A DNA stretch of 64,000 bases from Syntrophaceae bacterium UBA4054 (GCA_002383495.1 DFZO01000022.1:4465-68464), one strand, 5' to 3'; shown: positions 13,225 through 33,670, counted from the stretch's first letter. The notes: a model not told the origin generated them from the letters alone. Numbers and translations: made by a program.

Positions 13225-13364
13225 CAATCATTTTTTCAAGAATGCGTTTTTTAGGGAATTGTTCTTTACAGAAATGCCCGTTTGCCCTAAAATAAAATCG
13301 TTGGCGCAGACAGGCCCGCCGGGGTTCTTGCGGTTGTGTGAAGAGGATACAGGAGTGCGGGAAG

Positions 13365-15214: not shown

Positions 15215-15245
15215 ACTCCCTTCGTACATCACAAAGATCGCACGC

Positions 15246-16185: not shown

Positions 16186-16304
16186 GTCATCCCCGCGAAG
16201 AGACTGTGTCACTATTACCATCTTTGTCATTCCGTGCAAGCGAAGCGCGACACGGAATCCAGTATTTTCATTAAGTTCTGGATGCCGGCTTTCGCCGGCA
16301 TGAC
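16186..16304. repeat. cluster of GTCAT-initiated hairpin repeat units
   Basis: The units are GTCATCCCCGCGAAG (16186), GTCATTCCGTG...CACGGAATCCAG (16226-16262) and CTGGATGCCGGCTTTCGCCGGCATGAC (16278-16304). Related units occur at 27177 and 52681-52756. Confidence 0.7.
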
Positions 16305-16361
16305 AAACTTTTTCTTCGAGAGATGTTATTGTAAACTATTTCATGATCCGGGTGGTAAAAC

Positions 16362-17285
16362 ATGATCACGGATTTCAAGATGCTGATTGCGGAGGCCGCT
16401 TCCCGGGGGCCCAGGAAGGTTGCCGTCGTTCTGCCTCATGAGGCGGCATCGATCGAAGCGATCAATGACGCGCAGATCGCGGGCGTGGCCGAAGGCGTTC
16501 TCATCGGACACTCGAACCTTATCGAATCGCTTTTGAAGGATCTGAAGATTCTCCCGTCGCGTTTCGTCATTCACCATGAGATGAACGAGGATCTGGCGGC
16601 CGAATACGGTGTGGAACTGGCCGCGTCAGGCGGAATCGATATTCTCCTGAAAGGGAACATCTCGACCAACAAACTTCTGGGCGCTGCGCTGCGCGGTCCC
16701 CGCAATCTGAGGGCCGGAGCTCTGCTGAGCGATGTTTTCATCTTTGAGGACAGCCGGCAGGGCAGGCGGTCCATCACGCTCGCCTCCGATGGGGGCGTCA
16801 ATGTGGCTCCCGATTTGAAAGCGAAAATCGGCATCATCAAAAACGCCGTGACGGTCGCGCATGCCCTCGGGATCAGGGTCCCGAAGGTGGCCATTCTTTC
16901 CGGCGTGGAAAAAGTTCAGCCGGAAGTGCAATCAACGGTGGACGCCCTCGCTCTGGCCAAGATATGTTCATACGGGGATATCCCGGACTGCATTGTGGAC
17001 GGTCCTTTCGCGCTGGACAATGCCGTTTCCATGGAAGCAGCGCAGATCAAGAAAGTGGAATCACCGGTGGCCGGTTCAGCCGACATTCTGATCATGCCGG
17101 ACCTGGAGGCGGGAAATATCTTCGGAAAGGCTCTGGTCTACTATGGAGGAAAGGCTCTCGCGCACGTCATCGTCGGCGCGAAGGTCCCCATCCTGATCAG
17201 CTCGCGATCGGACCCGCCCGCGGCGAGGCTGGCCTCCATAGCCCTGGGCGTTCTGCTGTCATCTTGGATGACAGAGAAAGCATGA
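16362..17285 (+). CDS. phosphate butyryl/acetyl-transferase (Ptb/Pta family)
   Basis: 307 aa with PTA_PTB-like sequence throughout (DGGVNVAPDLKAKIGIIKNAV, ADILIMPDLEAGNI). Confidence 0.8.
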   Translation: MITDFKMLIAEAASRGPRKVAVVLPHEAASIEAINDAQIAGVAEGVLIGHSNLIESLLKDLKILPSRFVIHHEMNEDLAAEYGVELAASGGIDILLKGNISTNKLLGAALRGPRNLRAGALLSDVFIFEDSRQGRRSITLASDGGVNVAPDLKAKIGIIKNAVTVAHALGIRVPKVAILSGVEKVQPEVQSTVDALALAKICSYGDIPDCIVDGPFALDNAVSMEAAQIKKVESPVAGSADILIMPDLEAGNIFGKALVYYGGKALAHVIVGAKVPILISSRSDPPAARLASIALGVLLSSWMTEKA

Positions 17286-17312
17286 CGTATTTTCACATGG
17301 CAGGAAGGGGAT

Positions 17313-17744
17313 ATGAAGATAACACAGCTCTCAGTCTTTCTGGATAACAGGGCAGGGGTCCTGGCGGAACTGACCGAATATCTCGGCGCGAAGGGCATAA
17401 ACATCCGCGCACTCAGCGTCGCCGAGTCCCGGGATTTCGGCGTTATACGGATGATCGTGCCCGATCCCTCCCGTGCCGCCGATCTCCTCGGCGCAAAGGG
17501 TTACAGCATCCAGAAAGTGGAGGTCCTTGCCGTGCGGGTGGCCGATGAACCCGGAGGGCTTGGAAAGGCGCTTCGCGCCCTGGCCGACGAGCATTTGAAC
17601 GTGGATTATCTGTACACGTTTCTGGACAAGCTGGGAGATCACGCCGTCGTGATTCTTCGGGTCGACAATCTTGACTTCGCGAAGGCCGTTCTGATTCGTG
17701 AGGGCTTTGGGCTTTTATCGCAGGAAGATTTCTCAGGACTATAG
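17313..17744 (+). CDS. ACT domain-containing protein
   Basis: Two ACT-like repeats (MKITQLSVFLDNRAGVLAELT..., VLAVRVADEPGGLGKALRAL). RBS GGAAGGGG. Confidence 0.7.
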   Translation: MKITQLSVFLDNRAGVLAELTEYLGAKGINIRALSVAESRDFGVIRMIVPDPSRAADLLGAKGYSIQKVEVLAVRVADEPGGLGKALRALADEHLNVDYLYTFLDKLGDHAVVILRVDNLDFAKAVLIREGFGLLSQEDFSGL

Positions 17745-17765
17745 CAAAAGCGCTGCTTCCCCTTT

Positions 17766-18878
17766 TTATCCCTTCAGGATGGTTTTCAGGGCCGCGAGCA
17801 GCCTCGCGACATTTTCCTTCCTTGCCGTATGCCCCATCAGACCGACGCGCCAGATTTTTCCTGCCAGGGGGCCCAGGCCGGCACCGACTTCAATTTTGAA
17901 TTCACTTCGCAGGCGCCGCCGGACGGACAGTTCGTCCACGCCTTCGGGAACCAGCACGGCATTAAGCATGGGGAGGCGGTGAGGCTCATCGACCAGCATC
18001 TTCAGACCGAGCTCTTCCAGGCCGTTGACCAGCACCTGGTGATTCTCCCTGTGACGCTGGAAGACCTTCTCCTGTGTTTCCTCCAGGATCAGGAGGAGCG
18101 CCTGGTAAAGACCGTAGATCATGTTCACGGGCGCCGTATGATGATAAACGCGGTTTGTCCCCCAGTAGTTGGCGATGAGCGAGAGATCGAGGTACCAGTT
18201 GGGGACTTTCGTTTTCCGTCCGTTGAGCCGGGCCATCGCCTTTTCCGAAAAGGAGAGGGGCGCCAGTCCGGGCGGGCAGGACAGGCATTTCTGAGTCCCG
18301 CTGTAAATCGCGTCGATGTTCCAGTCGTCCGTCCTGACGTCCACGCCGCCCAGGCTTGTGACGGTATCAACAAGGTAAAGCGTGTCCGAATTCCTGAGCA
18401 GGCCGCCGACTTCAGCGACCGGGTTGAGCACGCCCGTGGAGGTTTCGGCGTGGACGATCGCCGCGATCTTGTATCCGCCCTTCCGAATCTTCTTTTCAAC
18501 CTCTTCGACGATCACCGGGGTCCCCCATTCAAATTCCAGCGCGTCCACCTGTGCTCCCAGCCTTTCCGCCACATCCTTCATCCTCCGTCCGAAAACGCCG
18601 TTGACGGCGATGAGGACTTTATCCCCCGGCTCCACGAGGTTTACGAAACAGGCCTCCATTCCGGCGGAGCCCGTGCCGGATAAAGGCAGCGTCAATTTAT
18701 TGTTGGTGTTCATGATCTTCTGAAGCATTTCCTTGAGGCCGTCCATTATTTTCAGGAAATAGGGGTCCAGATGCCCGAGGGTTTTCAGGCTCAGGGCGGC
18801 GTAGACTTCCGGAGGCACGCAAGAGGGTCCGGGTCCCATCAGCAACACTTCCTCAATCCCCTTCAACTGATTTTCCAT
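17766..18878 (-). CDS. class V aminotransferase (serine-pyruvate / alanine-glyoxylate type)
   Basis: PLP-lysine context SGTQKCLSCPPG. RBS AAGGAG lies 7 nt before MENQLKG. The ORF extends to 18899. Confidence 0.85.
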   Translation of the reverse strand: MENQLKGIEEVLLMGPGPSCVPPEVYAALSLKTLGHLDPYFLKIMDGLKEMLQKIMNTNNKLTLPLSGTGSAGMEACFVNLVEPGDKVLIAVNGVFGRRMKDVAERLGAQVDALEFEWGTPVIVEEVEKKIRKGGYKIAAIVHAETSTGVLNPVAEVGGLLRNSDTLYLVDTVTSLGGVDVRTDDWNIDAIYSGTQKCLSCPPGLAPLSFSEKAMARLNGRKTKVPNWYLDLSLIANYWGTNRVYHHTAPVNMIYGLYQALLLILEETQEKVFQRHRENHQVLVNGLEELGLKMLVDEPHRLPMLNAVLVPEGVDELSVRRRLRSEFKIEVGAGLGPLAGKIWRVGLMGHTARKENVARLLAALKTILKG

Positions 18879-18909
18879 AGGGGTCTCCTTTCGGATCATT
18901 TAAGGGAGG

Positions 18910-19136
18910 TTAACGCTCCAGCAGTTTCAGTTTCAGAAGTTTCTTGGCCAACGTGTAAATATCCTCTTTGCTGCCTTCCTTGCGTCGGCCGACGGCGACG
19001 ATGAAGACAACATTTTTTTCTCCGGCTCGTCGGACAGGCCGTCGATCGCGTTCCGGATTTTGATTCTGGTTTTCTGATCGGAAATTCGGCTGAGCATATC
19101 GAGAGCAGTGGGGGTGATAAAGATAGAGCATTTCAC
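18910..19136 (-). pseudogene. degraded RelE/ParE-family toxin (frameshift in A7 run plus missing central beta-strands)
   Basis: The N-terminal part MKCSIFITPTALDMLSRISDQKTRIKIRNAIDGLSDEPEKK is in one frame. The C-terminal part NVVFIVAVGRRKEGSKEDIYTLAKKLL is in another. They join at the homopolymer 19003-19009. The conserved central RelE segment is absent even after frame repair. Confidence 0.65.
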
Positions 19137-19408
19137 AAACCCCGCTCCCTCTTGGCATCCTCCCAGGCAATTACTTTGCCGGTTTCCAACTCCCGAATGC
19201 TTTTCTTGAGTTTGTTCATCAGATCCTTATCGGCCATGATCTCAAGAGTCTCGGTCAGCGTTTCATAGAATTCCCAGGGCATGACGGCCAGTACAGGTTT
19301 TCCCCGCCGTGTGACGGCAATGGCATTCATGTCCTGTTCTTTTCCAAACTGCTCAAGCAGCGATGTGAGCTTTTTTCTTGCCTCGATCATCGGCATTGTT
19401 TTGGACAT
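19133..19408 (-). CDS. Phd/YefM-family type II antitoxin
   Basis: MSKTMPMIEARKKLTSLLEQF...GKPVLAVMPWEFYETLTETLEI is typical of Phd/YefM. RBS AAGGAA is present. It overlaps the toxin remnant by 4 nt. Confidence 0.8.
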   Translation of the reverse strand: MSKTMPMIEARKKLTSLLEQFGKEQDMNAIAVTRRGKPVLAVMPWEFYETLTETLEIMADKDLMNKLKKSIRELETGKVIAWEDAKRERGL

Positions 19409-19524
19409 TGTCTCATTCCTTGAGTGATGTGTTTGTTGATGTATCTCGCAACGTACCTGTTCCGTCAAGTTATTTTTGAAAGGGCGACTCCATGCCCAAC
19501 ACCACATGCCGAACGCCTGCTTGA

Positions 19525-19737
19525 TCACATGGTAAGGCTTGACGGGATAGGATTTCCAGATTTTGCGGAAATCAGCAAGCGGCCTGTCACGGGGTCCTCA
19601 ACAGTGTTGGACACGACGAGGACCGGCAGTTTTCCCTTCCGCAGTATTTTCGCTGTCAGCAGGGTTTGCGCGAGCGGACCGGAGCCGAACTCGAACTCGT
19701 GATTGCCTGAGGTCGTCACGTCAAAGCCCATTAACAT
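19525..19737 (-). pseudogene. about 70-codon remnant of a metallophosphoesterase / 5'-nucleotidase gene
   Basis: The fragment carries the GNHEF(D/E) motif (DVTTSGNHEFEFGSGPL...LPVLVVSNTV) but lacks both ends of the roughly 500-aa family. Confidence 0.45.
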
Positions 19738-19752
19738 ATAAGTCAGGATATC

Positions 19753-20172
19753 CTACTCCCCGATGATCTTCACTAACGCCCGCTTCCTTCTCCGACCGTC
19801 AAACTCTCCGTAGAAAATCTGCTCCCAGGGGCCGAAATCGAGCCGGCCCTTTGTCACGGCGACGACAACCTCCCTTCCCATGATCTGCCGTTTCAGGTGA
19901 GCGTCCCCGTTGTCTTCGCCCGTGCGGTTGTGGCGGTAGCGTGATATGGGTTCATGGGGAGCGAGCTTTTCAAGCCATTCTTCATAATCCTGATGCAGTC
20001 CCGATTCATCGTCATTGATGAAAACACTCGCTGTAATGTGCATCGCGTTTATTAGTATCAAGCCCTCCTTGACGCCGCTTTTTCTGAGGCATTCCTCGAC
20101 CTGCGGCGTGATGTTTACAAAACCCCTCCGTGCGGGGATATTGAACCAGAGTTCCTCCCGGTATGATTTCAT
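19753..20172 (-). CDS. yjbQ: YjbQ/UPF0047 family protein (secondary thiamine-phosphate synthase-type)
   Basis: Starts [27 protein letters not shown] with RBS AGGAGGG. Family motifs [12 protein letters not shown] and NGDAHLK are present. Confidence 0.8.
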
Positions 20173-20254
20173 CCTGTCCACCCTCCTGTGTGATACTATT
20201 TTATCAGAGGTACTTTGCCAGATACTCTTTCGCGAGGAAAAGCAAAATCCCGAA

Positions 20255-20596
20255 TCAGTCGAGATCATAATGCAGCTTCAGTGCCCGGTCGATCTTTTCA
20301 AGCACCTGCCGATCGAGTCTGCCCACATGCTTGATCAGTCTGGCCTTGTCGATGGCCCTGGTCTGGTTGATCATAGCCTTTGACTTTTCGGTGAGTCCGC
20401 TGGAACCTACCGGCAGTTCCACTTCGAATGAAAAAATTCTGGAAATGTTTGATGTGATCGGCGTGATGGATATGATCGGGGAATTGGCATTGTTGACGTC
20501 ATTGGAAACAATAACCGCCGGTCTTGTCTTTTTTACTTCATGACCGACCGTTGGATCAAAATTGACCAGGTAGATGTCTCCTTTTTTAAAGGCCAT
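20255..20596 (-). CDS. mazF: MazF/PemK-family type II toxin (mRNA interferase)
   Basis: [33 protein letters not shown]...ITPITS is the canonical PemK/MazF N-terminus. Confidence 0.85.
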
Positions 20597-20807
20597 CGCT
20601 CAATGTCCCTTCCAGGTCTCTATATGTTTCCTCCATTTCATTCGCGGCCTCGCGGTATTCCACCGCCAGCCGTTCCTTTTGCCTTTCTTTGATAAGCCGT
20701 TTGATTGCCGTGGCGATGAACCGGCTTCTCTCACGAAGGGGAACCTCCTTCTTCAATTCAGAATAGGTGCTCTCCGGCAAAGAAACATTGACCCTTACTG
20801 CGGGCAT
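20586..20807 (-). CDS. ribbon-helix-helix (CopG/MazE-like) antitoxin
   Basis: MPAVRVNVSLPESTYSELKKEV... is an RHH beta-strand start. RBS GGAGGTG is present. It overlaps mazF by 11 nt. Confidence 0.7.
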   Translation of the reverse strand: MPAVRVNVSLPESTYSELKKEVPLRERSRFIATAIKRLIKERQKERLAVEYREAANEMEETYRDLEGTLSDGL

Positions 20808-21352
20808 AACACACCTCCATGTCTTATGATTATTACACAATAAATATACACAAACAAGGATGTTTGTCAATGGCTTTATGTTCTTTTGGGTTTCCTGCCG
20901 GTTTTATCGAACCAGAACATCAGTGGTTCCATGATTCCATGGCATGCAAAAGCCCAAATAACAATGCCTGATTTTGTCTGAGAGAATGCTATCGGCAGTC
21001 ACGCATTATTAAAGTTCGAGCGAACCGATACTCCTTGCTTCCGAATTTTGTGCTTTGCAAAAGTGAAGAAAATTGGATATATTCCGCTTTCGTCTTTTCA
21101 GGATGCTTTATTTTTTTCAGGGGGTTTGTAACTTTATGTCGGATGCGAAAAAATGATTGCTGGATCACCTGGGTGGCTCTGACGCCGGCCATTATGGCTG
21201 TTTTTGCTGCCATCACGACACTTTATGTTGGGAAATATTCCTCGCGCACCATCATGCATCAGGCATTGGGCATCAGGAAAAGACAAGAGGCAAAGGGGAA
21301 AAAAGTTATTCCACTTGAATCCTTGAACCCCTTTTTGAGGGAGGTTTAGCCA

Positions 21353-22429
21353 TTGGGTCCTGTAAGGGAAATGATGAACAGCCAGGGGCGGAGAAAGATT
21401 GCCCTTCTCGTCTTTTCCGCGATCGTGGTTCTGGGTATCGCGGGAATCCTTTTTTACATGAGCTATCTGAAGAGTCACGTCTCGACGGATGACGCGTTCG
21501 TGGCGGGGAAGATCCACGTGATCGCCTCCAAGGTCCCCGGAACGGTGAAGGCCGTTCATGTCCATGACAACCAGTCCGTGAAGCAGGGCGATCTCCTTGT
21601 CGAGATTGACTCGCAGGACTATGACGTGAGGGTGAGAGAGGCCGAGTCTGCGGTGGGCGCAGAAAGCTCAAAGCTCGCGGAGATATCATCGCGGGTCGAG
21701 GTGACCCGGAAGCAGCTCCGTGAATTCGAGTACAGGCTGGAATCGGCCCGGGCCAATCTCAAGCAGGCCGATCTCGACCTGACACGCGCCCGGAGGCTGT
21801 ATAAGAAGGAAATCCTGCCGGAGGAGAAACTGGAGAAGGCAAAAACAAATTACGATGTGGCCAGGGCCCGGGTGGACGCGGTGAAAGAACAGTTGAAGCA
21901 GGCAGAGGCCGCTTTGGAGACGCAGAAGGCTGTCATCCGGCAGACGGACTCGGCATTCCAGGCGCAGGGATCTCTTCTCAAACAGAGGCAGGAGGTCAGG
22001 AAGGGCGAGGATTTGAAGAGGAGCTACACCAGAATTTACGCGCCTTCAGACGGTTACGTGACCAAGAAGTCCCTGGAGGTCGGAAATCAGATCCAGGCCG
22101 GGCAGCCCCTCATGGCGGTGGTTCCGCTCGGCGATGTCTGGGTGGTCGCGAACTACAAGGAGACACAGCTTGAAAGGGTGAAACCGGGCCAGAAAGTGAA
22201 TATCCGCGTGGACACTTATCCCGGCAAGGCCTTTGAAGGTGTGGTGGACAGCATCATGGCGGGAACAGGCTCTGTTTTCTCACTATTTCCCCCGGAGAAT
22301 GCCACGGGCAATTTCGTGAAAGTCGTCCAGCGGATTCCCGTCAAGATCGTTCTGAAGAAGGGGGCGGATCCGGAGCATAAACTCAGGGTCGGAATGTCCG
22401 TGGAGCCCACGATCATCATAGACAAATAA
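21353..22429 (+). CDS. HlyD-family membrane fusion protein (EmrA-like)
   Basis: TTG start 8 nt after GAGGGAGG. It has an N-terminal TM, HVSTDDAFVAG, a long coiled coil and a barrel (RVDTYPGKAFEGVVDSI). Confidence 0.85.
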   Translation: MGPVREMMNSQGRRKIALLVFSAIVVLGIAGILFYMSYLKSHVSTDDAFVAGKIHVIASKVPGTVKAVHVHDNQSVKQGDLLVEIDSQDYDVRVREAESAVGAESSKLAEISSRVEVTRKQLREFEYRLESARANLKQADLDLTRARRLYKKEILPEEKLEKAKTNYDVARARVDAVKEQLKQAEAALETQKAVIRQTDSAFQAQGSLLKQRQEVRKGEDLKRSYTRIYAPSDGYVTKKSLEVGNQIQAGQPLMAVVPLGDVWVVANYKETQLERVKPGQKVNIRVDTYPGKAFEGVVDSIMAGTGSVFSLFPPENATGNFVKVVQRIPVKIVLKKGADPEHKLRVGMSVEPTIIIDK

Positions 22430-24537: not shown

Positions 24538-26106
24538 ATGAATAAGGAAGTTGTCAAAGCGAATGTTGTTGTTTTCATCGCCAGCTTCTGTACCCTGGTC
24601 ATCGAATTGGTGGCCGGGAGAATCATGGCGCCCTATGTCGGGGTTTCCCTTTACACATGGACGAGCATCATCGGCGTCGTCCTTGCCGGAATCAGTATCG
24701 GCGCCTACGCCGGAGGGCTGATCGCCGACCGTTACCCCCGGACGTCCACACTCGGCTGGCTTCTTTTCCTGTCGGGATTGGGGGCGTTGATCATCTCGCC
24801 CCTGACCAATCTGATCGGGGCGGCCCAGCTGCAGACCACTCTCATGGTGCGGATCCTCATCCTGACGACCGCCATTTTCTTCATTCCTTCCTGCATCCTC
24901 GGCATGATCTCGCCGGTCGTTGTGAAGCTCACCCTGAATAACCTGTCAAAGACAGGCAATGTGGTTGGGAAGATCTATGCTTTTTCCACGCTCGGCTCCA
25001 TCATCGGAACGTTCGCGACGGGTTTCTTCCTCATTTCATGGATGGGAACGAGGAATCTCCTGCTGGCCATGGCGGTCATTCTCGTCCTTTCGGCCCTGGC
25101 CTTCGGCGGCGCCTTCAGCCGGAAGAGGGCCGTCTTCGCTGTCCTTGCTGTTCTCGTGCCCCTCGTGTGGGTTTTTTACGGTTACGCTTTCAAGCCCCAA
25201 CTCGATGAAAAAATTTATTACTATTTCAAGGAAAGTGACTACTATACGATCAAGCTGTCCCGATACGAAACCCAGGACGGGCAGCAGGCGGAGGCCCTCA
25301 TCCTGGATAACCTGATCCATTCCATCAATGTTCTGGACAACCCGCTCCACCTGGATTACGAGTACCTCCGGATCTACGATGAGTTCATGCGGTGGCGAAC
25401 GAAAAAGCATGGATCGCCGCAGGCCCTTTTCATCGGCGGCGGGGGCTACACCTATCCCCGGTATCTCGAAGTGAAATATCCCTCGGCGGGCATTGATGTC
25501 GTCGAGATTGATCCTGAGATCACGAAGGTCGTGTATGATTATCTCGGGGTCCCGAAGGACACCCGGATCCGGTCCTTCAATGAGGATGGCCGCTGGTTTG
25601 TGATGAACTGCGGGAATAAGGGGAAATACGACTTCATCTTCGGCGATGCCTTCAACGATCTCTCCATACCATACCATTTGACCACAAAGGAGTTCGCGCA
25701 GCAGTTGATGGACCTTCTGAAACCCGACGGCATTCTCATGGCCAACATGATAGACAGCTATGAAAAGGGGCTTATGCTGCCCTCTTATATCCGGACGCTG
25801 GAACAGGTTTTCGGAAAAGGACACGTCCATCTCGTTGCCGTGGCCCCGGATTTCAAGGGAATCAGCACCTGCGTCGTCGTGGCGAGCAGGCAAAGCCTGG
25901 ATCTTGACAGCTTCGTGCGGACGATCAAGAGCGAAGGCGGCACCGAAATGATTTCCCACGTCTTTCCCCAGGAACGCCTGCAGGAGCACCTGGCGAAACG
26001 TCCTTTTGTCATCCTCACGGATGATTATGTGCCTGTCGACAACCTGGTTGCCCCGATCTTCGAGGAGCGCTTCGGGTACAAGAAAAACCGAGAGGCTGAA
26101 GAATGA
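24538..26106 (+). CDS. membrane-fused spermidine synthase-like protein (N-terminal multi-TM domain + aminopropyl/methyltransferase fold)
   Basis: RBS AAGGAG lies 8 nt before ATG 24538. About 210 aa of hydrophobic helices are followed by LFIGGGGYTYPRYL and GDAFNDLSIPYHLTTKEF (SpeE-like). Confidence 0.75.
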   Translation: MNKEVVKANVVVFIASFCTLVIELVAGRIMAPYVGVSLYTWTSIIGVVLAGISIGAYAGGLIADRYPRTSTLGWLLFLSGLGALIISPLTNLIGAAQLQTTLMVRILILTTAIFFIPSCILGMISPVVVKLTLNNLSKTGNVVGKIYAFSTLGSIIGTFATGFFLISWMGTRNLLLAMAVILVLSALAFGGAFSRKRAVFAVLAVLVPLVWVFYGYAFKPQLDEKIYYYFKESDYYTIKLSRYETQDGQQAEALILDNLIHSINVLDNPLHLDYEYLRIYDEFMRWRTKKHGSPQALFIGGGGYTYPRYLEVKYPSAGIDVVEIDPEITKVVYDYLGVPKDTRIRSFNEDGRWFVMNCGNKGKYDFIFGDAFNDLSIPYHLTTKEFAQQLMDLLKPDGILMANMIDSYEKGLMLPSYIRTLEQVFGKGHVHLVAVAPDFKGISTCVVVASRQSLDLDSFVRTIKSEGGTEMISHVFPQERLQEHLAKRPFVILTDDYVPVDNLVAPIFEERFGYKKNREAEE

Positions 26107-27140
26107 AACCAAACGTCTATTTTTCTGAACAAGTGGATTCACGCTCCATCGAAGACGTTTTTGGAAGGGCGCTGAGGGACGGCGTGAAGATCGGGAGAGA
26201 GAGCCGCGTGGCGATCAAGGTCCATTTCGGCGAGAGGGGAAACACGAGATTCGTTTCTCCCGGAAACCTCCAGCCGATCATCGGCTCACTCGGGAAGATC
26301 AACGGCAACTTATTCCTCACGGACGCGAACACCCTCTACCGCGGGATGCGGCTGAACGCGACGGATCACCTGAAGATCGCAAAGGAGCACGGTTTCGACA
26401 GACTGAAGACGAAAATCGTTATCGCTGACGGGGAGAAAGGCGACGAGGAGGTGGACGTCGAGATCGGGAAAACCATATTCTCGAAAGTCAAAATTGCAAA
26501 GGCTGTTGCGGAATCGGATGTCCTTATTGCTGTGTCACACTTCAAGGGCCACATGCTTTTCAGTTTCGGCGGGGCCATAAAGAACATTGGCATGGGCTGC
26601 GGTTCCCGCGCCGGAAAGCTGGAGATGCACTCGAAAATCAAGCCCTCTGTGAGTACGAATTGCGTCGAATGCGGCCGGTGCATTGAGCACTGCCCCGTCG
26701 AGGCGATCAGCGACGAGAGCGGCAAAACCCGGATCAATCAGGTGAAATGCATCGGATGCGCCGGGTGCATCGCTGTCTGCGAGAGCGAGGCCATCGACAT
26801 TCCCTGGCACGGCGCCACGAGCCGGGAGTGCATGGAGCGCTGCGTGGAATACGCTTTCGGCGCCGTCAGGGGGAAGGAGCGCGTATTCGTGACATTCATC
26901 CATCACATCACAAGCGACTGCGACTGCATGCCCGACAGCCGGGTGATCGGCGACGACGTGGGGATCGTATCCTCCACCGATCCCGTGGCCTGCGATCAGG
27001 CGGCCTACGATCTCGTTCTGAGAAAGCACGGCGGGCGGGACATCTTCAAAGCGGCGCATGGCATGGACGGCCGGCATCAGCTTGCCTATGCCGAGCGGAT
27101 CGGCCTCGGGAAGAGGGCGTACACCTTAATCGAACTGTAG
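26103..27140 (+). CDS. DUF362 domain protein with internal 2x[4Fe-4S] ferredoxin module
   Basis: Start overlaps the previous stop (ATGA). CVECGRCIEHCP and CIGCAGCIAVCE motifs lie inside a DUF362-like frame. Confidence 0.75.
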   Translation: MKPNVYFSEQVDSRSIEDVFGRALRDGVKIGRESRVAIKVHFGERGNTRFVSPGNLQPIIGSLGKINGNLFLTDANTLYRGMRLNATDHLKIAKEHGFDRLKTKIVIADGEKGDEEVDVEIGKTIFSKVKIAKAVAESDVLIAVSHFKGHMLFSFGGAIKNIGMGCGSRAGKLEMHSKIKPSVSTNCVECGRCIEHCPVEAISDESGKTRINQVKCIGCAGCIAVCESEAIDIPWHGATSRECMERCVEYAFGAVRGKERVFVTFIHHITSDCDCMPDSRVIGDDVGIVSSTDPVACDQAAYDLVLRKHGGRDIFKAAHGMDGRHQLAYAERIGLGKRAYTLIEL

Positions 27141-27203: not shown

Positions 27204-27348
27204 TTTTTTAATAACGTTATGAGTTCCCCACGTTTTATTCAAGAGTCATGGTGCCGCACGTTATGCTTCCCTGAATGCACAAAAGCAGAATCAGCGGCTT
27301 ATGAATGGGATTGAAAACAAATTGAATGAAACGGAATCCGGGTATTTG

Positions 27349-29979
27349 TTACTCCCGTTCACCAATCAGGATGAAAGGCGCCCAGAAGAATGGATGAGAG
27401 GCGCCGGTTTGAATCTTCTTGTCCCGTCCGGTGATCTTGACGCCGCGGCTTAAATCAGTGGAGGCCAGGCTTTGGTTTTTCAATTCCTGCTTGGCCAGCC
27501 TGAGCGCCTCTTCTCTGGACGTTCCGGGCTTGAGATGCGAGTAGAAGCTCTTCATCAGGACGGCCGTAGAATTCGATTCCACGCTCCAGAGGCTCACGAT
27601 AACCGATTTGGACCCCGCGAGCATGAAGGCGCGGCTTAAGCCCACGATTCCCTCTCCGGCAATCTCTTTTCCCAGGGCCGTCTTGCAGGCCGACAGGACA
27701 ACGGCATCGGCGTTGAGTTTGAATTCCAGGATCTCGCTCATCTTGAGGAAGCCGTCCTCAGGGCTGCGGTTCCCCGGCTGGCTCAGAACCAGCGCCGGTT
27801 CCAGGATATAAGGAATGTCGCCGCTCAAAAGACCGTGGGTGGCAAAATGGATGAACCGGTAACTGCCGAGATCGGATTTTAAAAGCTCGCTCTTGGAGGC
27901 ATCCATATCCAGCTTGATGTTGGGGTCATGGGTTTTGTACCCGAAGAGCGCGCCTATTTTCAGGACCTCATCGCGGGTCTCGGGCAGACGCTGCAAAGAG
28001 AAGCCGCTGCGGACCAGGGCGCTGCGCAAATTGAGGCCAGGCGTCTGATCGGCCGATGCCAGGACGATGTTGTTGGACTTTCTATGGCTGTAACGCGCAT
28101 CCGAATCCTCATAGACCGGATCGCCGAGTGCAAACAGGGGCCGGGATAATTTGGGACTCTCTTTGAACTGCCGCATGGTCGCCATGACCGAGGCGGACGG
28201 ATAATAGCTGATCTTGTATTTTTCTCCCAGGTATTGAATCGCATTTTTTGTTCTGCCCGCCGTCAATGCCTCGAAGGGAATCATGTTCAGCACGCCGTCG
28301 GGGGTGATGATGATGTTTTTGTCGGAATCTATCCGGCTGAGAGCTTCTCCCAGCAGGAGCCTGCCCAGGGCCCGCCCTTTCTCCGGGTCATAGGCATCCA
28401 GCCGGTCCGGATTTTCAAGCCCGCTTCGAAATTCCCCGACTTTCCGGATGAGTTCCTCCCGGCTCACGGCGATTTCGATGGCCGAAGGTTTCTTGCCTTT
28501 TTCTATGATCCAGAGATAGGTCTTCCCGGGGTTGACCTTGTATGCGAGGAGCACCTCATTGGCCCGCAGCGGGATATTCCCTGCCATGACCGGCTCGGGA
28601 TAGCGGATGGAGGCATAATCCGGATACTCTTTTCGCAGCTTGGCGATCAATTCATCCAGTTCGCGTTTCGATTTTTTCAGGAGCTCTCGCTGTGCTTCCG
28701 ACTGGCCGCTTCCGGAGGACTGGATCGAGTCGACGGTGCTGAGCAATCGCTGCTCCTGTTCGGCCAACTCGCGGGGAATCCGGTCGGCGAGGGCGGCCGT
28801 TCTGGCTTTGGAGAGCAGTTCGAGAAAAGACCGGGCCTTGGTGCTTTCAGCGTAAAAGAAGGCCACTTCCACGGGAGTGAGGCCCGCTTTGATAAAGCGC
28901 GGATCCAGGCGGATATCGTCCTGCGTCCGGCCGTCTGCCGTGAGCAGGATATCGATGGCATGCTCATAGGCGGCGATTTTATTGGCCAGGAACAAGGACC
29001 GGAACTCTGTCGAACTCAGGCTGCCTCTCAAATCCTCAATGAACTTGATGGCGGTGTTGTAGTAGAGCAGCGCCTGGGCATTGCGGTTCTGCTCTTCATT
29101 CAAAAGCCCCAGGCCATAATTGGCGTACATCTGTTTCTCGGGGTAGTGCAGGTCCATGACGTCCAGGAGCCCAAGCCCTTCCCGGAAGGACCGGGCCGCC
29201 TCGTTGTATTTTTTCAATGACACCAGACAAAAACCGATGTTGTTGAGGATGTCCACGGTATCGGACGTGTTGTAACTTTTCCGGGCAAGTTCGAGGGCAC
29301 GCTGATAATGGACGACCGCCTCCTGATAACGGCCGAGGCCGAAAAGGGTCGTGCCCAGGGAGGAATAGACCGACTGCTTCAGCTTGTCGTCCTTGTAGCT
29401 GTCGATGCCTGAAAGGGACCTGGTGAAGATGTCCAGTGCCTGGGACAAACGGCCTTGCTGCGCGAGGGTCTCCCCCATGCTGAGCGCAATGAGCGGATGC
29501 CCGCCCTTCGCGGACTCACGATTGCCCGTCGGGGCCGCCGCCAGAATCTCTGCGGCCTTGTCCGTATCCCCGATTTTCTTGTAGCAATCGGCCAGTCCGA
29601 CCGTTGCCAGGACGATCCCCTCCGGATAGCGGCTGCTTTTGGCGGCGGATAACGATTGATTGAAATAGGACAGCGCCTTGTCGTACTCGTTGCGATCGAG
29701 GTAGGCCTTGCCCAGATAGCGGCAAATATCGGAGGTCTTTTCCCCATTGCCGGAGTAGAACGTCAGAGCCTCGCGCATGGAGAGCAGAAACTTGTCGAAG
29801 GAACCTTCGCGAAGGTAATCCAGGCCTTCCTGGGTGAGGATATCGCCCTTGCTCTTGGTGGCGGTCAGGAAGAGGGGGTGGTAGTTGGCAAGGCCTTCGG
29901 ACTGGGTTAACCCGTGACTGAGTCCGCAACCGCTGGTGCAGATGACCAGAAAAATCAGCAGCCATCGTTTCATCAGCAT
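27349..29979 (-). CDS. lipoprotein TPR-CHAT protein (caspase-like protease domain)
   Basis: Lipobox LVICTSGCG. The N-terminal half is TPR-rich. The C-terminal CHAT domain carries a His/Cys dyad context (FIHFATHGLL and AVVLSACKTALG). Confidence 0.85.
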   Translation of the reverse strand: MLMKRWLLIFLVICTSGCGLSHGLTQSEGLANYHPLFLTATKSKGDILTQEGLDYLREGSFDKFLLSMREALTFYSGNGEKTSDICRYLGKAYLDRNEYDKALSYFNQSLSAAKSSRYPEGIVLATVGLADCYKKIGDTDKAAEILAAAPTGNRESAKGGHPLIALSMGETLAQQGRLSQALDIFTRSLSGIDSYKDDKLKQSVYSSLGTTLFGLGRYQEAVVHYQRALELARKSYNTSDTVDILNNIGFCLVSLKKYNEAARSFREGLGLLDVMDLHYPEKQMYANYGLGLLNEEQNRNAQALLYYNTAIKFIEDLRGSLSSTEFRSLFLANKIAAYEHAIDILLTADGRTQDDIRLDPRFIKAGLTPVEVAFFYAESTKARSFLELLSKARTAALADRIPRELAEQEQRLLSTVDSIQSSGSGQSEAQRELLKKSKRELDELIAKLRKEYPDYASIRYPEPVMAGNIPLRANEVLLAYKVNPGKTYLWIIEKGKKPSAIEIAVSREELIRKVGEFRSGLENPDRLDAYDPEKGRALGRLLLGEALSRIDSDKNIIITPDGVLNMIPFEALTAGRTKNAIQYLGEKYKISYYPSASVMATMRQFKESPKLSRPLFALGDPVYEDSDARYSHRKSNNIVLASADQTPGLNLRSALVRSGFSLQRLPETRDEVLKIGALFGYKTHDPNIKLDMDASKSELLKSDLGSYRFIHFATHGLLSGDIPYILEPALVLSQPGNRSPEDGFLKMSEILEFKLNADAVVLSACKTALGKEIAGEGIVGLSRAFMLAGSKSVIVSLWSVESNSTAVLMKSFYSHLKPGTSREEALRLAKQELKNQSLASTDLSRGVKITGRDKKIQTGASHPFFWAPFILIGERE

Positions 29980-29997
29980 CGTGTTCTCCTGTCTGAA

Positions 29998-30597
29998 TCA
30001 ATAAAGTTCATCAAGCTTTCTGGAAAATTCTTTCAGAAGGTTGTCAATGGCTTCGTTTACCGCGTATCGCGCCATGTCATAGTTCGTTTCCATGATTATC
30101 TGATTGAGCATACTTCTGCTCCCCTCCGCCTTGACGCTGAAACTGCGCAGCAGCCGCCCCTTACCGTCGAAGTTTTCCGTTTCAAGCGCCACCGTCGCGG
30201 TATGAGAACTCATCCCTGTAAAGGCGGGCGAGTACGTGAAGGATTTAATCCGGGGAACAAAATAAATGTCAACATCGTGGATTTCACCTGCATCATGAGC
30301 AATGGCAACGTTTCCGAATTTGCTGGAGACAATCCCGTAAAGGGCCTGGGACAAATTCTTGCCGATGTCTATTTCTCCCTTCACGTTTGCCAGCAGGAAG
30401 ATCTGCGTACCCGTCTTGAAGACATATTTGTAGCTGGTGAACTTGTCGTCGAGAAGGAGTCCCGCTTTCAGGGAACTTTTCTTCATATTCTCGGTCGGGA
30501 TTTTTGGCTCAACCGAAACTTTCCGCATGTCTATGGTGCTGCCACATCCCGAAAGAAACAACGCAATGAGGCATAACAAAAGCACTGTTTTTTTCAT
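29998..30597 (-). CDS. hypothetical lipoprotein, 18 nt upstream of the CHAT gene
   Basis: MKKTVLLLCLIALFLSGCGS lipobox, RBS GGAAGG. No family recognised. Confidence 0.7.
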   Translation of the reverse strand: MKKTVLLLCLIALFLSGCGSTIDMRKVSVEPKIPTENMKKSSLKAGLLLDDKFTSYKYVFKTGTQIFLLANVKGEIDIGKNLSQALYGIVSSKFGNVAIAHDAGEIHDVDIYFVPRIKSFTYSPAFTGMSSHTATVALETENFDGKGRLLRSFSVKAEGSRSMLNQIIMETNYDMARYAVNEAIDNLLKEFSRKLDELY

Positions 30598-30867
30598 GAG
30601 AACCTTCCAATAATTATTGAGTCGAGCAACCAGCTTATCCCGATATAACAGGTCGGGGGGCGTCCACCGGGTTTCCAAACGATGTCACGCTGTCCCAAAC
30701 CATCAAAATACTATTATATCGTATCACACTAATCGAGGGAATAACATCAATGATAACTTTTTAAAACAGTGGATCTTCACGGAGATTGATGATTTGCGCA
30801 TAACAGGAAGGAATGACTCGTGATCGTTTTTACAGCTGCTGTCAGGAAAACTTCGTCTACAGGCATG

Positions 30868-31284
30868 TCATTCAAGCGTTTTTCCAGGGAATTCTTCCCT
30901 GATAAAATCTGAAAGATCCTTTTCAAGAGCTTTGAACTGTTCCGTCTTGTCCCTCGGACCAAACTGGGTCAACGCGATGCTGACAGTTGTCTCTCCCTTT
31001 ACGGAGGTCGCGAGCCTTACCCTTTCATGGTAGCAGTCCTGGTATTTTCGTACGGCATTATACGGCTTGCATGTTAAACCATTTCGCTTCGCGATTTTCT
31101 CGATTCGGGAAAAAAGGTTATCCAGGTCTTCGGGTTTGGAAACGGTGAAGCTCTTCGCTCGATCGTTCCGGAAATCAATGACGACCTGCCTCTTGTAAAT
31201 CATGTCACAGCTGATGAGCAAGCAGAGGCAACAGAGAAAACAGAGCAGTAAAATATGTTCAGGAAACGTCCTGGAGGAAATCAT
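30868..31284 (-). CDS. hypothetical small lipoprotein
   Basis: MISSRTFPEHILLLCFLCCLCLLISCD lipobox, RBS GGAGAAGG. The ORF extends to 31311. Confidence 0.6.
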   Translation of the reverse strand: MISSRTFPEHILLLCFLCCLCLLISCDMIYKRQVVIDFRNDRAKSFTVSKPEDLDNLFSRIEKIAKRNGLTCKPYNAVRKYQDCYHERVRLATSVKGETTVSIALTQFGPRDKTEQFKALEKDLSDFIREEFPGKTLE

Positions 31285-31360
31285 CAAACCTTCTCCACAT
31301 CGTCCACGCATGAAAAGTCACATATCAAGGGCTGACCTGCATACTCCATCCGAATGATTT

Positions 31361-32380
31361 TCATTTACCTATCAATCGTCTGAACTCAGGAGTATTTCTA
31401 ATGTTATCAAAGGCAGGGTCATCTGCAAGACTCCGTGCCTCAGGATGTAATTTTATGGCTTTCGATAAGTCTTGAACAGCTCTCGTTCTATCTCCAATAA
31501 GGGAATATGTTTTCCCGCGGTTGTAATAAGCCAGTGCATCTCTTGGATTGAGTTCAATCGCTTTATTCAAATCAACGATGGCTTCATTGTATTTGCCAAG
31601 GGCTCCATATACTTTCCCGCGAAACAAATAAGCCAGTGCATCTCTTGGATTGAGTTCAATCGCTTCATTGAAATCAACAATGGCCTCATTGTATTCGCCA
31701 CGACTCGCATGAAACATTCCACGGGTGGTATGAGTCTGTGAATATGTCGGATCCATTTCAAATGCTTTTTCGAAATCATGTGCTACAGCCTCAAAGTCGC
31801 CTTTTTGATAATTTCTATATCCACTTTCAACCCATTCAATAGCCGAAAGTTCTTTTATTGCCTTATTATATTTAACTTGAACTTTTTCTTTATCTTCGCC
31901 TTTTGCGAATTTTAGTTCTTCCCTTAGTTTCTTGTTTTCTTCTAATATCGCATCTGACCTCTTCCTCACTTCTTCCAATTCTCTTGATTTCTCACGGTCC
32001 TTGCGAAGACTATCAATTGATTTTATGACTTCCCCTTCATCCGCCGATATTTTCGTTTTTATCCAGTATATATGACCGTCCCATTTTTCATCTACAATCT
32101 CTGTTTTTACAATACCTGCGGTCAGTGAAGTTAGCTGGTCTTTCGTAAGCTGAAAGTTTTTTACCTCCGTTATACTCTCAAGATAGGTTCCCAGTTCCTC
32201 CAAGAGAAGTCTTTTCACTTCACGCATTGCAGTAACACGACTTGAATTTCTGCTATCGTCCTCACTGGCTCGATAGATGTATTCTTTGATGAAGGTTTTT
32301 GTTTCAGCAGATGCGAGATGAGGGGAAAATAAGAGAAACAGAAAAGATAGAACGGTGATCCTTGCCAGCGTGGATGTCAT
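31361..32380 (-). CDS. secreted protein: N-terminal domain, coiled coil, C-terminal TPR repeats
   Basis: Signal peptide ...SPHLASA-ET. A charged coiled coil follows (REKSRELEEVRKRSDAILEENKKLREELK), then 3-4 TPR units. RBS AAAGGAGG. The gene is visibly AT-rich. Confidence 0.75.
   Translation of the reverse strand: MTSTLARITVLSFLFLLFSPHLASAETKTFIKEYIYRASEDDSRNSSRVTAMREVKRLLLEELGTYLESITEVKNFQLTKDQLTSLTAGIVKTEIVDEKWDGHIYWIKTKISADEGEVIKSIDSLRKDREKSRELEEVRKRSDAILEENKKLREELKFAKGEDKEKVQVKYNKAIKELSAIEWVESGYRNYQKGDFEAVAHDFEKAFEMDPTYSQTHTTRGMFHASRGEYNEAIVDFNEAIELNPRDALAYLFRGKVYGALGKYNEAIVDLNKAIELNPRDALAYYNRGKTYSLIGDRTRAVQDLSKAIKLHPEARSLADDPAFDNIRNTPEFRRLIGK
31526..31699. repeat. near-identical tandem duplication of one 102-bp TPR unit
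   Basis: ATAAGCCAGTGCATCTCTTGGATTGAGTTCAATCGCTT occurs at 31526 and again at 31628. The copies continue with only a few mismatches over about 70 nt (protein NEAIELNPRDALAY x2). Confidence 0.8.
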
Positions 32381-32408
32381 AGATGCCTCCTTTCTGAACC
32401 GATGGCAA

Positions 32409-32437
32409 CTTATACATCAACCCCGAACAGTCTGCAA
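32409..32437 (-). promoter_or_regulatory. sigma-70-type promoter TTGCAG-N17-TATAAG for the TPR/lipoprotein cluster
   Basis: Read on the minus strand. The -10 element ends about 28 nt upstream of ATG 32380. Confidence 0.5.
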
Positions 32438-32563
32438 TGCATGTTATTGATTTTCGATTGAAAGGACGCATGAAATTGCCGACTGAGGAAAACAACATTT
32501 CAGGAAGCGAAGCGATAATCTGCTTTTGAAGATTCTCTCGACTGGTCCGATTTGGGTGTGTGC

Positions 32564-33670
32564 TCAAAACCGTCGTATCAGCTTTTGCACGAGCCTTCCC
32601 GGCAGTGTTTCGCGGGCGCGGAGGGCGCCCTGCGGACAGACCTCGATGCAGCAATAGCAGCGGATACATTTGTCGTAATCAAACTTGAGATTCCCGCTGG
32701 TCTCCTGGATGGCCCCGGCGGGGCAGAACTTCCAGCACTCGCCGCAGAGGGTGCAGAGGCTGTCATCGGGGACGGGTCTTTGAAGAAGCTGCCTGCGGAC
32801 AAAACCGTGGAGCGGCCGGGGTCCGGAGATGAGTGACGCGGATTCGGGAAGCTTGAAATCAACGATCCTTTCGACATTCCCCTGCACCTTGAAATGGAGG
32901 TCCAGGAGCCCCATCTCCCTCGCGGCCTGGTTGGTCGGGAGCTGATCGGGGCGCAGGCCCAGAAGTCTGCACGCGGTTACATCAAGCGCAAGAGCGTTGT
33001 TGCTTGCCAGGAGCAGTCCAAGTTTTTTCGGCGTGCCGCCTTTCCCCGGCCCGTCGCCTTCCATGGCGAGAATGCCGTCCATGATCGTCATGAAGGGCTT
33101 CAGCGCCTGATGAATCTGGACGAGCAGACATGCGAAAAGATCCCGGTTCACGCCCGTCCTCAGATGCCACTCCGCCTTACGGAAACCCACCACACAGCCG
33201 AAGAGATTCTTCACGCCGAGGGTGAGGAGCATCTGACTGTGCGTTTTAAACTTCGGCAGATTAATTATAAAATCAGCGTTCACGGCTTCTTCCGCCATCT
33301 CGATTCTGCCGAAGGGCTCGCCGATGTCCATGTGGGTCGAGTTTTTGAAAGGCCTGCAGGTCACGTCGAGTCCCTTAAGCGCATCCCGGAAGCCGCTTTC
33401 CCGGATCAGCCGGTCGAAGGAGCCCATGCCCGGGCTGTCGCAGATGTGAGGGTGGGCTCCCCGTTCGAGAACATATTCCGCCACGGCTCTCACAATGGAG
33501 GGATGGGTGAGAACGGCCTGTTCGGGTTTTGCCTGGACGAGCAGATTGGGTTTGATGATGACCCGGCTGTGATTTTCGATCAGATCGCCGCCGAGGGAGT
33601 TCATCATGTCGAACACGAGCGGACGCAGCGTTTCATAATCATAGGAGGCTTTTTTGATGATGACTTTCAT
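32564..33670 (-). CDS. DUF362 domain protein with C-terminal 2x[4Fe-4S] ferredoxin domain
   Basis: MKVIIKKASYDY...VIIKPNLL is a DUF362 N-terminus. The C-terminus carries CTLCGECWKFCP and CIRCYCCIEVCP. Confidence 0.8.
   Translation of the reverse strand: MKVIIKKASYDYETLRPLVFDMMNSLGGDLIENHSRVIIKPNLLVQAKPEQAVLTHPSIVRAVAEYVLERGAHPHICDSPGMGSFDRLIRESGFRDALKGLDVTCRPFKNSTHMDIGEPFGRIEMAEEAVNADFIINLPKFKTHSQMLLTLGVKNLFGCVVGFRKAEWHLRTGVNRDLFACLLVQIHQALKPFMTIMDGILAMEGDGPGKGGTPKKLGLLLASNNALALDVTACRLLGLRPDQLPTNQAAREMGLLDLHFKVQGNVERIVDFKLPESASLISGPRPLHGFVRRQLLQRPVPDDSLCTLCGECWKFCPAGAIQETSGNLKFDYDKCIRCYCCIEVCPQGALRARETLPGRLVQKLIRRF

Follow-up and report, generated by a model that had tools for sequence, protein, structure and literature searches.

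The 64,000-nucleotide (nt) stretch of DNA from Syntrophaceae bacterium UBA4054 (GCA_002383495.1, DFZO01000022.1:4465-68464) analysed in this work, which we will refer to as the window, contains on its minus strand, at positions 27252–30812, a self-contained and horizontally mobile module of two genes for proteins of the cell envelope. The first of these genes encodes a 199 amino acid (aa) lipoprotein, LP199, and the second encodes TPR-CHAT, an exported protease of 876 aa in which an array of tetratricopeptide repeats (TPRs) is followed by a CHAT domain. The pair was found intact in approximately 50 loci from Syntrophales, Desulfobacterales, Desulfatiglandales, and Nitrospirota metagenome-assembled genomes (MAGs); all of the related loci are MAG or metagenome contigs, whose taxonomic labels depend on binning. 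We hold the anatomy and the pairing of this module with high confidence. The LP199 family and its pairing with this clade of TPR-CHAT proteins appear to be undescribed, and no description of the pair was found in the literature on CHAT or TPR-CHAT proteins and lipoproteins or the periplasm; periplasmic TPR-CHAT proteins as such are already known. The layout of the module in the window is as follows.

27252–30812, minus strand: conserved two-gene cassette, consisting of the leader, LP199, the 18-nt spacer, TPR-CHAT and approximately 97 nt of 3' flank
30598–30811, minus strand: 5' leader and putative promoter region, which travels with the cassette
29998–30597, minus strand: LP199 gene, encoding a 199-aa lipoprotein with the lipobox LSGC and Cys18
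29980–29997, minus strand: 18-nt spacer TTCAGACAGGAGAACACG, which holds the ribosome-binding site (AGGAG) of the CHAT gene
27349–29979, minus strand: TPR-CHAT gene, encoding an 876-aa exported, probably lipid-anchored cysteine protease of the caspase fold

Conservation of the LP199–CHAT Pair

Co-occurrence across genomes had been named beforehand as a test of the association of these genes, and the result for the LP199–CHAT pair was very strongly positive. All 24 loci obtained in a search from the LP199 side carried both genes, and in a metagenome scan from the CHAT side an LP199-family open reading frame (ORF) was present directly upstream in all 28 informative loci, over a range of CHAT identity extending from 32 to 96%. 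This latter scan covered 33 loci, in which all ORFs were searched with a hidden Markov model of the lipoprotein family; one locus could not be scored because its CHAT gene was cut at the contig start, and in the loci where the CHAT protein was 29–30% identical to that of the window, no LP199-family ORF was found (0 of 4). In the first loci of the set, which included a Nitrospirae MAG and two ENA contigs, a homologue of LP199 was located directly upstream of a TPR-CHAT protein of approximately 875 aa, with flanks that were specific to each locus. By tblastn, a full-length CHAT orthologue (78–97% identity) followed immediately after LP199 wherever the contig permitted. The pairing was also retained in divergent cases, where a lipoprotein of about 25% identity was accompanied by an exported CHAT protein of 40–44% identity with both of its catalytic motifs (HFATHG and LSACKT). 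When the ORFs flanking the pair in the 24 loci were clustered all against all, the LP199 and CHAT families were the only ones to recur, and no third conserved component was found.

In the window exactly 18 nt separate the LP199 stop codon from the CHAT ATG, as the preliminary description of this DNA had claimed, and the two genes are in the same frame. The gap was short, approximately 15–27 nt with the stop codon allowed for, in 28 of 33 distinct pairs, and larger gaps between the aligned ends (43–66 nt) were seen in the most divergent ones. The sequence of the 18-nt spacer is also conserved.

Based upon the same 33 distinct pairs (528 comparisons), the pairwise distances of LP199 and CHAT were highly correlated (r = 0.945). 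The correlation of the LP199 distances was highest with the TPR segment of the protease (0.956) and lowest with its catalytic domain (0.894), and the mean pairwise distance decreased from LP199 (0.385) through the TPR segment (0.32) and the middle region (0.28) to the CHAT domain (0.193). This pattern fits co-inheritance of the two genes, and it is compatible with, rather than proof of, an interface between LP199 and the TPR array.

One database protein, P0088 (197 aa), consists of the N-terminal two-thirds of a distant LP199-family protein fused to roughly the final 60 residues of a CHAT protein (…HPFFWAPFILIGEWH). This chimera probably arose by deletion or through faulty assembly across such a pair, and it provides further incidental evidence for the adjacency of the two genes in that lineage.

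Separation of the Cassette from its Neighbouring Genes

Four minus-strand ORFs, all in the same orientation and all with export signals, are present in this part of the window as the preliminary description had reported. It had treated them as one exported protease and partner system, to which the two genes upstream of the cassette also belonged. The features concerned are given below.

30809–32466, minus strand: neighbouring module of TPR339 and LP139, separate from the CHAT cassette
31361–32380, minus strand: TPR339 gene, 339 aa
30868–31287, minus strand: LP139 gene, 139 aa when read from TTG and 138 aa from the ATG at 31284
30809–30812, no strand assigned: junction of the two independent modules (...cacgagtcatt / ccttcctgtt...)

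The common orientation and the export signals of all four proteins would be expected if they formed a single system, but several results argue against it. Homologues of LP139 or TPR339 were found in none of the approximately 50 LP199–CHAT loci, and their block adjoins different genes in the one other contig (L033) where it was seen. In blastn searches, positions 27252–30812 of the window were 93.6% identical over 3568 nt to another contig (L030, 8164–11727), while positions 30809–32466, which hold TPR339 and LP139, were 89.6% identical in nucleotide sequence to L033 (3551–5197), where there is no CHAT gene. These two homologies meet without overlap at about position 30810, the sequence being shared with L033 up to 'gagtcatt' and with L030 from 'tccttcct' onwards, so that blocks common to different contigs are divided by a clean breakpoint. 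The G+C content at third codon positions (GC3) is 0.73 for CHAT and 0.72 for a flanking gene, in comparison to 0.56 for LP139 and 0.33 for TPR339. The gap between LP139 and LP199 is 270 nt and, of only 12 LP139 homologues that were detected, one (L032) stands alone in another context. The single-system interpretation is thus extremely unlikely, and the 339- and 139-aa proteins can no longer be regarded as partners of CHAT, with which they co-occur nowhere else. A point in favour of the larger grouping is that in L033 the TPR339–LP139 block also adjoins a secreted protease of the caspase fold.

The arrangement in L033 (1722–6314) may be noted in its own right. The block is located there between a secreted protein with Peptidase_C14 (orthocaspase), coiled-coil and Lcl_C regions, directly downstream of whose gene it lies, and a paralogue of TPR339 that is 30% identical to it. 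It is therefore found beside two different exported proteases of the caspase fold in two genomes, which may be a coincidence or may reflect a loose association.

The TPR-CHAT Protein

The assignment of the 876-aa protein is based upon a Pfam match to the CHAT domain (PF12770) with a score of 206.8 bits against a cut-off of 24 (E = 6.4e-61), which extends over residues 534–874 and covers positions 3–289 of the 289 in the profile. Its features within the window are listed below.

29926–29979, minus strand: signal peptide MLMKRWLLIFLVICTSGC with Cys18 as its last residue; some 25 linker residues, modelled with low confidence, come next
29020–29850, minus strand: TPR array, residues ~44–320, matched by Pfam TPR_1, TPR_2, TPR_12 and others and consisting entirely of helical hairpins in the model
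28381–28989, minus strand: helical middle region with a small beta unit, residues 331–533, between the TPR array and the CHAT domain, from the secondary structure of the model
27358–28380, minus strand: CHAT catalytic domain, residues 534–874
27835–27837, minus strand: codon of the catalytic His715 (HFATHG), checked
27685–27687, minus strand: codon of the catalytic Cys765 (LSACKT), checked

Orthologues of this protein with 60–97% identity are present in approximately 45 loci. In an alignment of 39 sequences with identities down to 22%, His715, L762, S763, A764, and Cys765 were all invariant, in agreement with the earlier statement that the contexts of the His/Cys dyad are retained. The CHAT domain is the best conserved segment of the protein (83–97% identity in the orthologues and 56% in a clade where overall identity is 44%); the identity of the middle region in the orthologues is 74–97%.

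An AlphaFold2 (AF2) model of TPR-CHAT had a predicted local distance difference test score (pLDDT) of 80.6 and a predicted template modelling (TM) score of 0.81, with values of pLDDT below 50 at residues 16–40. The order of its parts is a linker, which provides a flexible tether, a TPR superhelix, a helical middle region with the small beta unit, and the α/β CHAT domain. The top matches of this model to PDB structures by Foldseek were to Csx29, DdvA and separases, with alignments of 860–1100 columns over the whole chain and E values from 1e-13 to 1e-10; the TM-scores for these matches were low (0.24–0.38), as can be anticipated where several domains are flexibly connected. When the PDB was searched by sequence, TPR proteins only and no CHAT chain were matched.

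The preliminary description had presented this protein as a lipoprotein with TPR and CHAT regions. The TPR array, the CHAT domain and the export of the protein are borne out, but this copy does not conform to a strict lipobox rule. The rule applied was of the PROSITE PS51257 type (a Cys at residues 15–35 following a hydrophobic stretch, with an N-terminal K/R), and the sequence VICTSGC fails it in having a Cys at -4. The lipobox Cys is conserved in the orthologues, several of which pass the rule (VFISGC and LITCGC fit), whereas distant relatives possess a cleavable signal peptide of the signal peptidase I type instead. On these grounds, as judged from sequence, the export of TPR-CHAT is well supported and its lipidation is probable.

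The LP199 Lipoprotein

LP199 itself has a lipobox (LCLIALFLSGC) that matches the above rule, as do 26 of 33 of its homologues; the rest are mostly products of gene calls that lack the 5' end. In public annotations the start of LP199 is often placed at the internal Met24 (P0046, P0076, P0078, and P0255–P0257), giving products of 176–178 aa from which the signal peptide and lipobox are lost. As the DNA of the homologues that were called short contains the complete 199-aa frame, automated annotation would miss the lipoprotein nature of these proteins.

Database searches retrieved 82 homologues of LP199 at 57–91% identity, and of 1.84 billion representative proteins only 31 matched a profile of the family (E ≤ 1e-3). 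No Pfam or NCBIfam family was matched even at E values up to 10, except at the level of the signal peptide, and the LptE (PF04390), PqiC-DUF330 (PF03886), PelC, and CsgG profiles gave no sequence match in these databases. The earlier claim that the partners belong to no recognisable family therefore stands for the sequence of LP199, but not for its fold. Its AF2 model (pLDDT 88.8) is a two-layer α/β domain starting a few residues past the lipidated Cys, for which the best PDB match by Foldseek was 2iqi (XCC0632, a DUF330, PqiC-type auxiliary lipoprotein; E = 7e-8, TM-score ~0.5–0.58), with further matches to Cj1090c, FlgT, LptE, PelC, and CsgG (E values from 1e-5 to 1e-3). On the basis of this model, LP199 has a fold of the LptE/PqiC/PelC/CsgG class, the assignment being at the level of fold only, and the proteins related to it constitute a lipoprotein family, hitherto unnamed, with a fold like that of LptE and PqiC. 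The relatives of LP199 by fold are lipoproteins associated with the outer membrane, which plug barrels or form rings.

The resemblance of LP199 to the LptE, PqiC, PelC, CsgG, and FlgT class extends to its N-terminal lipidation, and the TM-scores are moderate. Pairing with a protease gene, as in the case of LP199, is not known for any of these families, and genes for an LptD barrel, PqiAB, PelB-type or curli partners were not recurrent beside LP199 in the 24 loci.

The most conserved stretch of LP199 is located as follows.

30478–30531, minus strand: residues ~23–40, D-M-R-K-[IV]-S-V-E-P-K-I-x-T-E-N, starting five residues after the lipidated Cys

Within it, M24, R25, K26, and P31 are invariant in the alignment of LP199 homologues, and the Arg and Pro are nearly invariant across the wider family. 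This segment may, as we infer, be a docking or cleavage site.

Relationship to Known TPR-CHAT Proteins and Other Envelope Proteases

The premise of the preliminary description that a periplasmic CHAT protein lacks precedent is outdated. The periplasmic TPR-CHAT domain of DdvA, a transmembrane anti-sigma factor of Myxococcus xanthus, has been solved (PDB 8rot/8rw5), and DdvA has been presented as the first anti-sigma factor to contain a domain of this type (PMC11506125). It was captured in a resting state, and a periplasmic protein cue has been proposed as its trigger (PMC11506125). Other exported TPR-CHAT proteins were also seen in our searches beside CHASE2-cyclase operons and DUF4384 proteins. 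With DdvA the protein of the window shares an extracytoplasmic TPR-CHAT region of the separase/craspase type, the His-Cys dyad, a fold match (Foldseek E ~5e-13) and a proposed latency. However, DdvA crosses the membrane once, has a zinc anti-sigma domain on the cytoplasmic side and is paired with the extracytoplasmic function (ECF) sigma factor DdvS, whereas TPR-CHAT has at its N-terminus only an 18-residue signal peptide or lipobox and has a lipoprotein partner. Its identification as a DdvA-like anti-sigma factor was rejected, as it contains no zinc anti-sigma domain or transmembrane helix and no sigma factor gene was present in the flanks or recurrent in the 24 loci.

The best fold matches of TPR-CHAT were to Csx29 (7y8t_B and 8eey_B, E = 1.4e-13), which has the same TPR-CHAT architecture. 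Cas7-11 activates Csx29, whose substrate Csx30 is a product of the same locus (type III-E CRISPR Craspase literature). In both cases a protease has a co-encoded partner, and Csx29 and Csx30 constitute a latent protease and its target in one locus; but Csx29 is cytoplasmic and activated by Cas7-11 with its CRISPR RNA, whereas the protein described here is exported, and its lipoprotein partner is unrelated to Csx30. That TPR-CHAT is itself a type III-E Csx29 was rejected on the basis of its score with NF041237 (14.1 bits against a cut-off of 300), the absence of cas genes from the flanks and from the large window ORFs, and the presence of an export signal. Separase, which is held inactive by securin, likewise combines a TPR-like helical region with a caspase domain of the CHAT type (fold match E ~1e-12) and is gated by a dedicated bound partner. 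It differs in being eukaryotic, nuclear or cytoplasmic and much larger, and securin is a disordered pseudosubstrate rather than a folded lipoprotein.

Two further groups of systems are relevant to the comparison. In NlpI–Prc, LbcA–CtpA, and BepA, a periplasmic protease acts with an outer membrane lipoprotein, and the choice of partner or substrate is mediated by TPRs. These are serine or metalloproteases with housekeeping functions, and in the adaptor pairs the TPRs are borne by the adaptor, whereas the protease of the window has the caspase fold and its own TPRs, and is rare and mobile. In bacterial gasdermin operons, which are accessory and mobile, a caspase-like (including CHAT) protease is encoded beside a small protein that it cleaves, with a resulting change in membrane integrity. 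Unlike the present pair, these systems are cytoplasmic and their target is a gasdermin; as LP199 is not gasdermin-like by either family search or fold, a protease–gasdermin system was rejected.

Exported TPR-CHAT proteins are abundant in bacterial genomes and, with the exception of DdvA, we know of none to which a partner, substrate or role has been assigned. The present clade, with one strictly co-inherited partner gene, offers the first clean and testable partner for exported CHAT proteins.

Some observations were also made on more distant relatives in which an LP199-family gene is lacking. In one contig (L061, 40–5244), genes for a CHASE2-adenylate/guanylate cyclase and a 242-aa secreted protein are followed by a TPR-CHAT gene whose product is about 30% identical to that of the window; in another (L062, 9–3544), a cyclase fragment precedes the same secreted protein sequence, which there seems to form a fusion with the CHAT ORF. 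In a third (L063), the neighbour of such a CHAT gene encodes a DUF4384 protein. Proteins with DUF4384 recur near the exported TPR-CHATs of several clades (L026 4070–5596; L028 1–493 and 3668–4462; L063 154–1095; P0053). One of them is a 508-aa CsgG/FlgO-PEGA-DUF4384 lipoprotein, and elsewhere the DUF4384 ORF of one contig reads through into LP199. Some of the C-terminal domains of Csx30 have been reported to be DUF4384 or PilP-like (craspase paper). In view of this and of its recurrence near TPR-CHATs, DUF4384 may be a target or recognition domain associated with proteases.

Distribution and Mobility of the Cassette

In a scan of one genome per species, the cassette was present in 17 of 185,579 genomes, which belonged to Syntrophales, Desulfobacterales, Desulfatiglandales, and Nitrospirota/Thermodesulfovibrionales MAGs; as the scan was based upon patterns, this number is a lower bound. 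The CHAT proteins of Nitrospirota and Desulfobacterota MAGs are 78–81% identical. An identity near 80% across phyla, together with differing positions of the cassette even in close relatives, indicates horizontal transfer, and such modules thus pass between phyla of anaerobic, syntrophic bacteria. The difference in position is illustrated by L030, whose CHAT protein is 94% identical to that of the window. The match of the cassette in this contig is limited to window positions 27252–30812; within flanks that are otherwise syntenic with the window, the block lies at another position and in the opposite orientation.

In a comparison with L030 that took in positions 12658–21895 of the window, the cassette of the window was inverted and about 8 kb more distant from the common PTA_PTB, ACT, and aminotransferase genes than that of L030. 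Beside the cassette L030 contains approximately 7.5 kb with no counterpart at that position in the window, including a Gp49/HTH toxin–antitoxin pair, a methyltransferase, a PAS-GerE regulator, and CoA transferases. A repeat search around the two blocks of the window gave no direct or inverted repeats at their ends, and the one notable repeat was the internal TPR duplication of 102 nt in TPR339 (see below).

Toxin–antitoxin genes are located beside the cassette in several loci, namely PhdYeFM (L002), BrnT and DUF4160/DUF2442 (L003), ParE and HicA (L026), and the Gp49/HTH pair (L030). A rare, patchy, cross-phylum distribution next to such genes points to an accessory role in stress or conflict. 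It bears also on a housekeeping interpretation, according to which the pair would carry out quality control of the outer membrane or of lipoproteins, in the manner of the TPR-protease BepA on LptD/LptE. The LptE-like fold of LP199, the periplasmic TPR-protease architecture and the precedent of BepA are in keeping with such a function. However, a pair limited to 17 of the species genomes scanned, at non-syntenic positions even in close relatives, with a cross-phylum identity that reflects transfer rather than vertical descent and with no match of LP199 to the LptE or PqiC sequence models, is not what this interpretation would lead one to expect, and we consider it to be very unlikely.

Possible Role of LP199 in Relation to the Protease

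All TPR-CHAT proteins characterised so far are latent, each under the control of its own protein partner, and LP199 is on these grounds a candidate for the dedicated partner of TPR-CHAT. By analogy with these systems, we tentatively predict that LP199 is the regulated target or gate of the protease, a reading that we regard as a genuine possibility without presuming it to be correct. The TPR array would in this case keep LP199 bound on the periplasmic side of the outer membrane, and LP199 would act as an operon-encoded target or gate, following the logic of Csx29–Csx30 and of the pairs of caspase-like proteases and gasdermins. An extracytoplasmic cue would activate the His715–Cys765 dyad, and cleavage of LP199 would release or remodel this plug-type lipoprotein, with a change in the state of the envelope. 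The highly conserved segment past the lipid anchor, with its nearly invariant Arg, is a possible site of cleavage. If the partner is indeed a cleaved outer membrane plug, regulated proteolysis of the caspase type would extend to the bacterial envelope.

A number of observations weigh against this reading or limit it. The correlation between the LP199 and CHAT distances is expected from co-inheritance alone. The N-terminal segment of LP199 is modelled as packed on the domain (pLDDT ~88) and not as a free, cleavable linker, and the fold relatives of LP199 are structural or scaffolding lipoproteins that are not known as protease substrates. That the proteins are sorted to the outer membrane and not to the inner one is an assumption based upon the +2 rules of E. 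coli, which may fail in these phyla. The adjacency to toxin–antitoxin genes is seen in some loci only and is a descriptive observation. A scan of viral contigs with the LP199 profile found no occurrence, and a phage origin was accordingly rejected. Lastly, no PADLOC-DB 2.0 defence model was matched, the CHAT protein giving a generic TPR match only and LP199 and LP139 nothing, and the cassette was thus not identified as a known anti-phage defence system.

In a closely competing reading, LP199 would not be cleaved but would serve as an adaptor or regulator, that is, as a membrane-proximal subunit that docks, activates or inhibits the protease, the real substrates of which would be other envelope proteins. 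Lipoproteins of the fold class of LP199 act as scaffolds, plugs or rings by binding partners, and the divergence of LP199 follows that of the TPR segment best. Separase is held by a pseudosubstrate that is not cleaved, the CHAT domain of DdvA is resting and needs a conformational trigger, and the lipoprotein adaptors NlpI (with Prc) and LbcA (with CtpA) offer a further likeness. However, in the known pairs the TPR domain sits on the adaptor, whereas here the protease has a TPR array and an anchor of its own, and the characterised prokaryotic partners that are encoded in operons with caspase-fold proteases (Csx30 and the gasdermins) are substrates. A putative adaptor role is therefore possible, if doubtful.

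The strict linkage of the two genes and the faster evolution of LP199 than of the catalytic domain (mean distances of 0.385 and 0.193) could also be reconciled with self-protection, in which the exported CHAT protein would act in the envelope as a damaging or weapon-like protease, against which LP199 would be the cognate immunity or inhibitor lipoprotein. The horizontal spread of the cassette and its location in variable regions beside toxin–antitoxin genes are likewise in line with this. The protease nonetheless has a signal peptide or lipobox of the type found in resident proteins and no delivery domain, and secretion-system, Rhs, contact-dependent inhibition or type VI secretion genes were not recurrent nearby in the 24 loci. 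In addition, the putative immunity gene is upstream of and coupled to the protease gene, rather than downstream of it. Self-protection is for these reasons improbable.

With LP199 taken as target or gate, a more specific possibility is that the cassette constitutes a mobile, extracytoplasmic switch of the caspase type. The tethered TPR-CHAT protein would sense an insult to the envelope (e.g., a phage or competitor protein crossing the periplasm) and cleave the plug or ring lipoprotein, thereby altering the integrity or signalling of the outer membrane. A switch of this kind, which we think unlikely in this full form, would be an envelope-side analogue of the abortive-defence logic of protease–gasdermin or Craspase–Csx30 systems, transferred horizontally among syntrophic anaerobes.

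Leader, Promoters, and Chromosomal Context

Within the 5' leader of the cassette, a stretch of approximately 45 nt that abuts the LP199 ATG (window 30598–30645; …AAACCGGTCTACTCGACTCAATAAT…AAAGGGTTCTC-ATG) is conserved in 8 of 15 loci, its counterparts being in L009, L011, L012, L014, L016, L021, and L030; the remaining loci have unrelated upstream sequence. This element could be a promoter, an operator or an RNA element of the cassette. A consensus scan called no sigma-70 site in the leader. The promoter TTGCAG-N17-TATAAG that had been proposed for TPR339 is present as a motif, but it was not called by the same scan and amounts to no more than chance, promoter-like sites in the region being fewer (2) than in shuffled controls (4.6).

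The context of the window is that of an ordinary chromosome, with genes for an HrpA-like helicase, CdaA, sensor kinases, a σ54 activator, and CoA transferases. Neither the flanking genes nor the large ORFs in the window included any cas, ECF sigma or anti-sigma genes. Two paralogous genes, each for a DUF362 plus 4Fe-4S dicluster protein (26103–27140, plus strand, and 32564–33670, minus strand), flank the stretch of about 5.3 kb that contains both of the inserted modules.

The TPR339 and LP139 Proteins

Of the two proteins encoded by the neighbouring module, LP139 has a lipobox (FLCCLCLLISC, with LISC and an Asp at +2) that matches the PROSITE-style rule. The description of TPR339 as a secreted protein with coiled-coil and TPR regions was found to be accurate: it has a Sec signal peptide ending ASA|E, three to four TPRs, a TPR end-of-group domain, and a coiled-coil. 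No family was identified in Pfam or NCBIfam, at E values up to 10, for LP139 or for the N-terminal domain of TPR339 (about 100 residues), and a PDB sequence search with the latter gave nothing. In the same family databases, the N-terminal domain of the TPR339 paralogue in L033 gave an insignificant match to FlgT_N (E = 0.15). TPR339 additionally contains an internal tandem duplication of 102 nt (window 31505–31700), by which two TPR units are 87% identical in DNA. This duplication, together with a GC3 of 0.33 in comparison to about 0.72 for its neighbours, suggests that TPR339 is a recently acquired or expanded gene.

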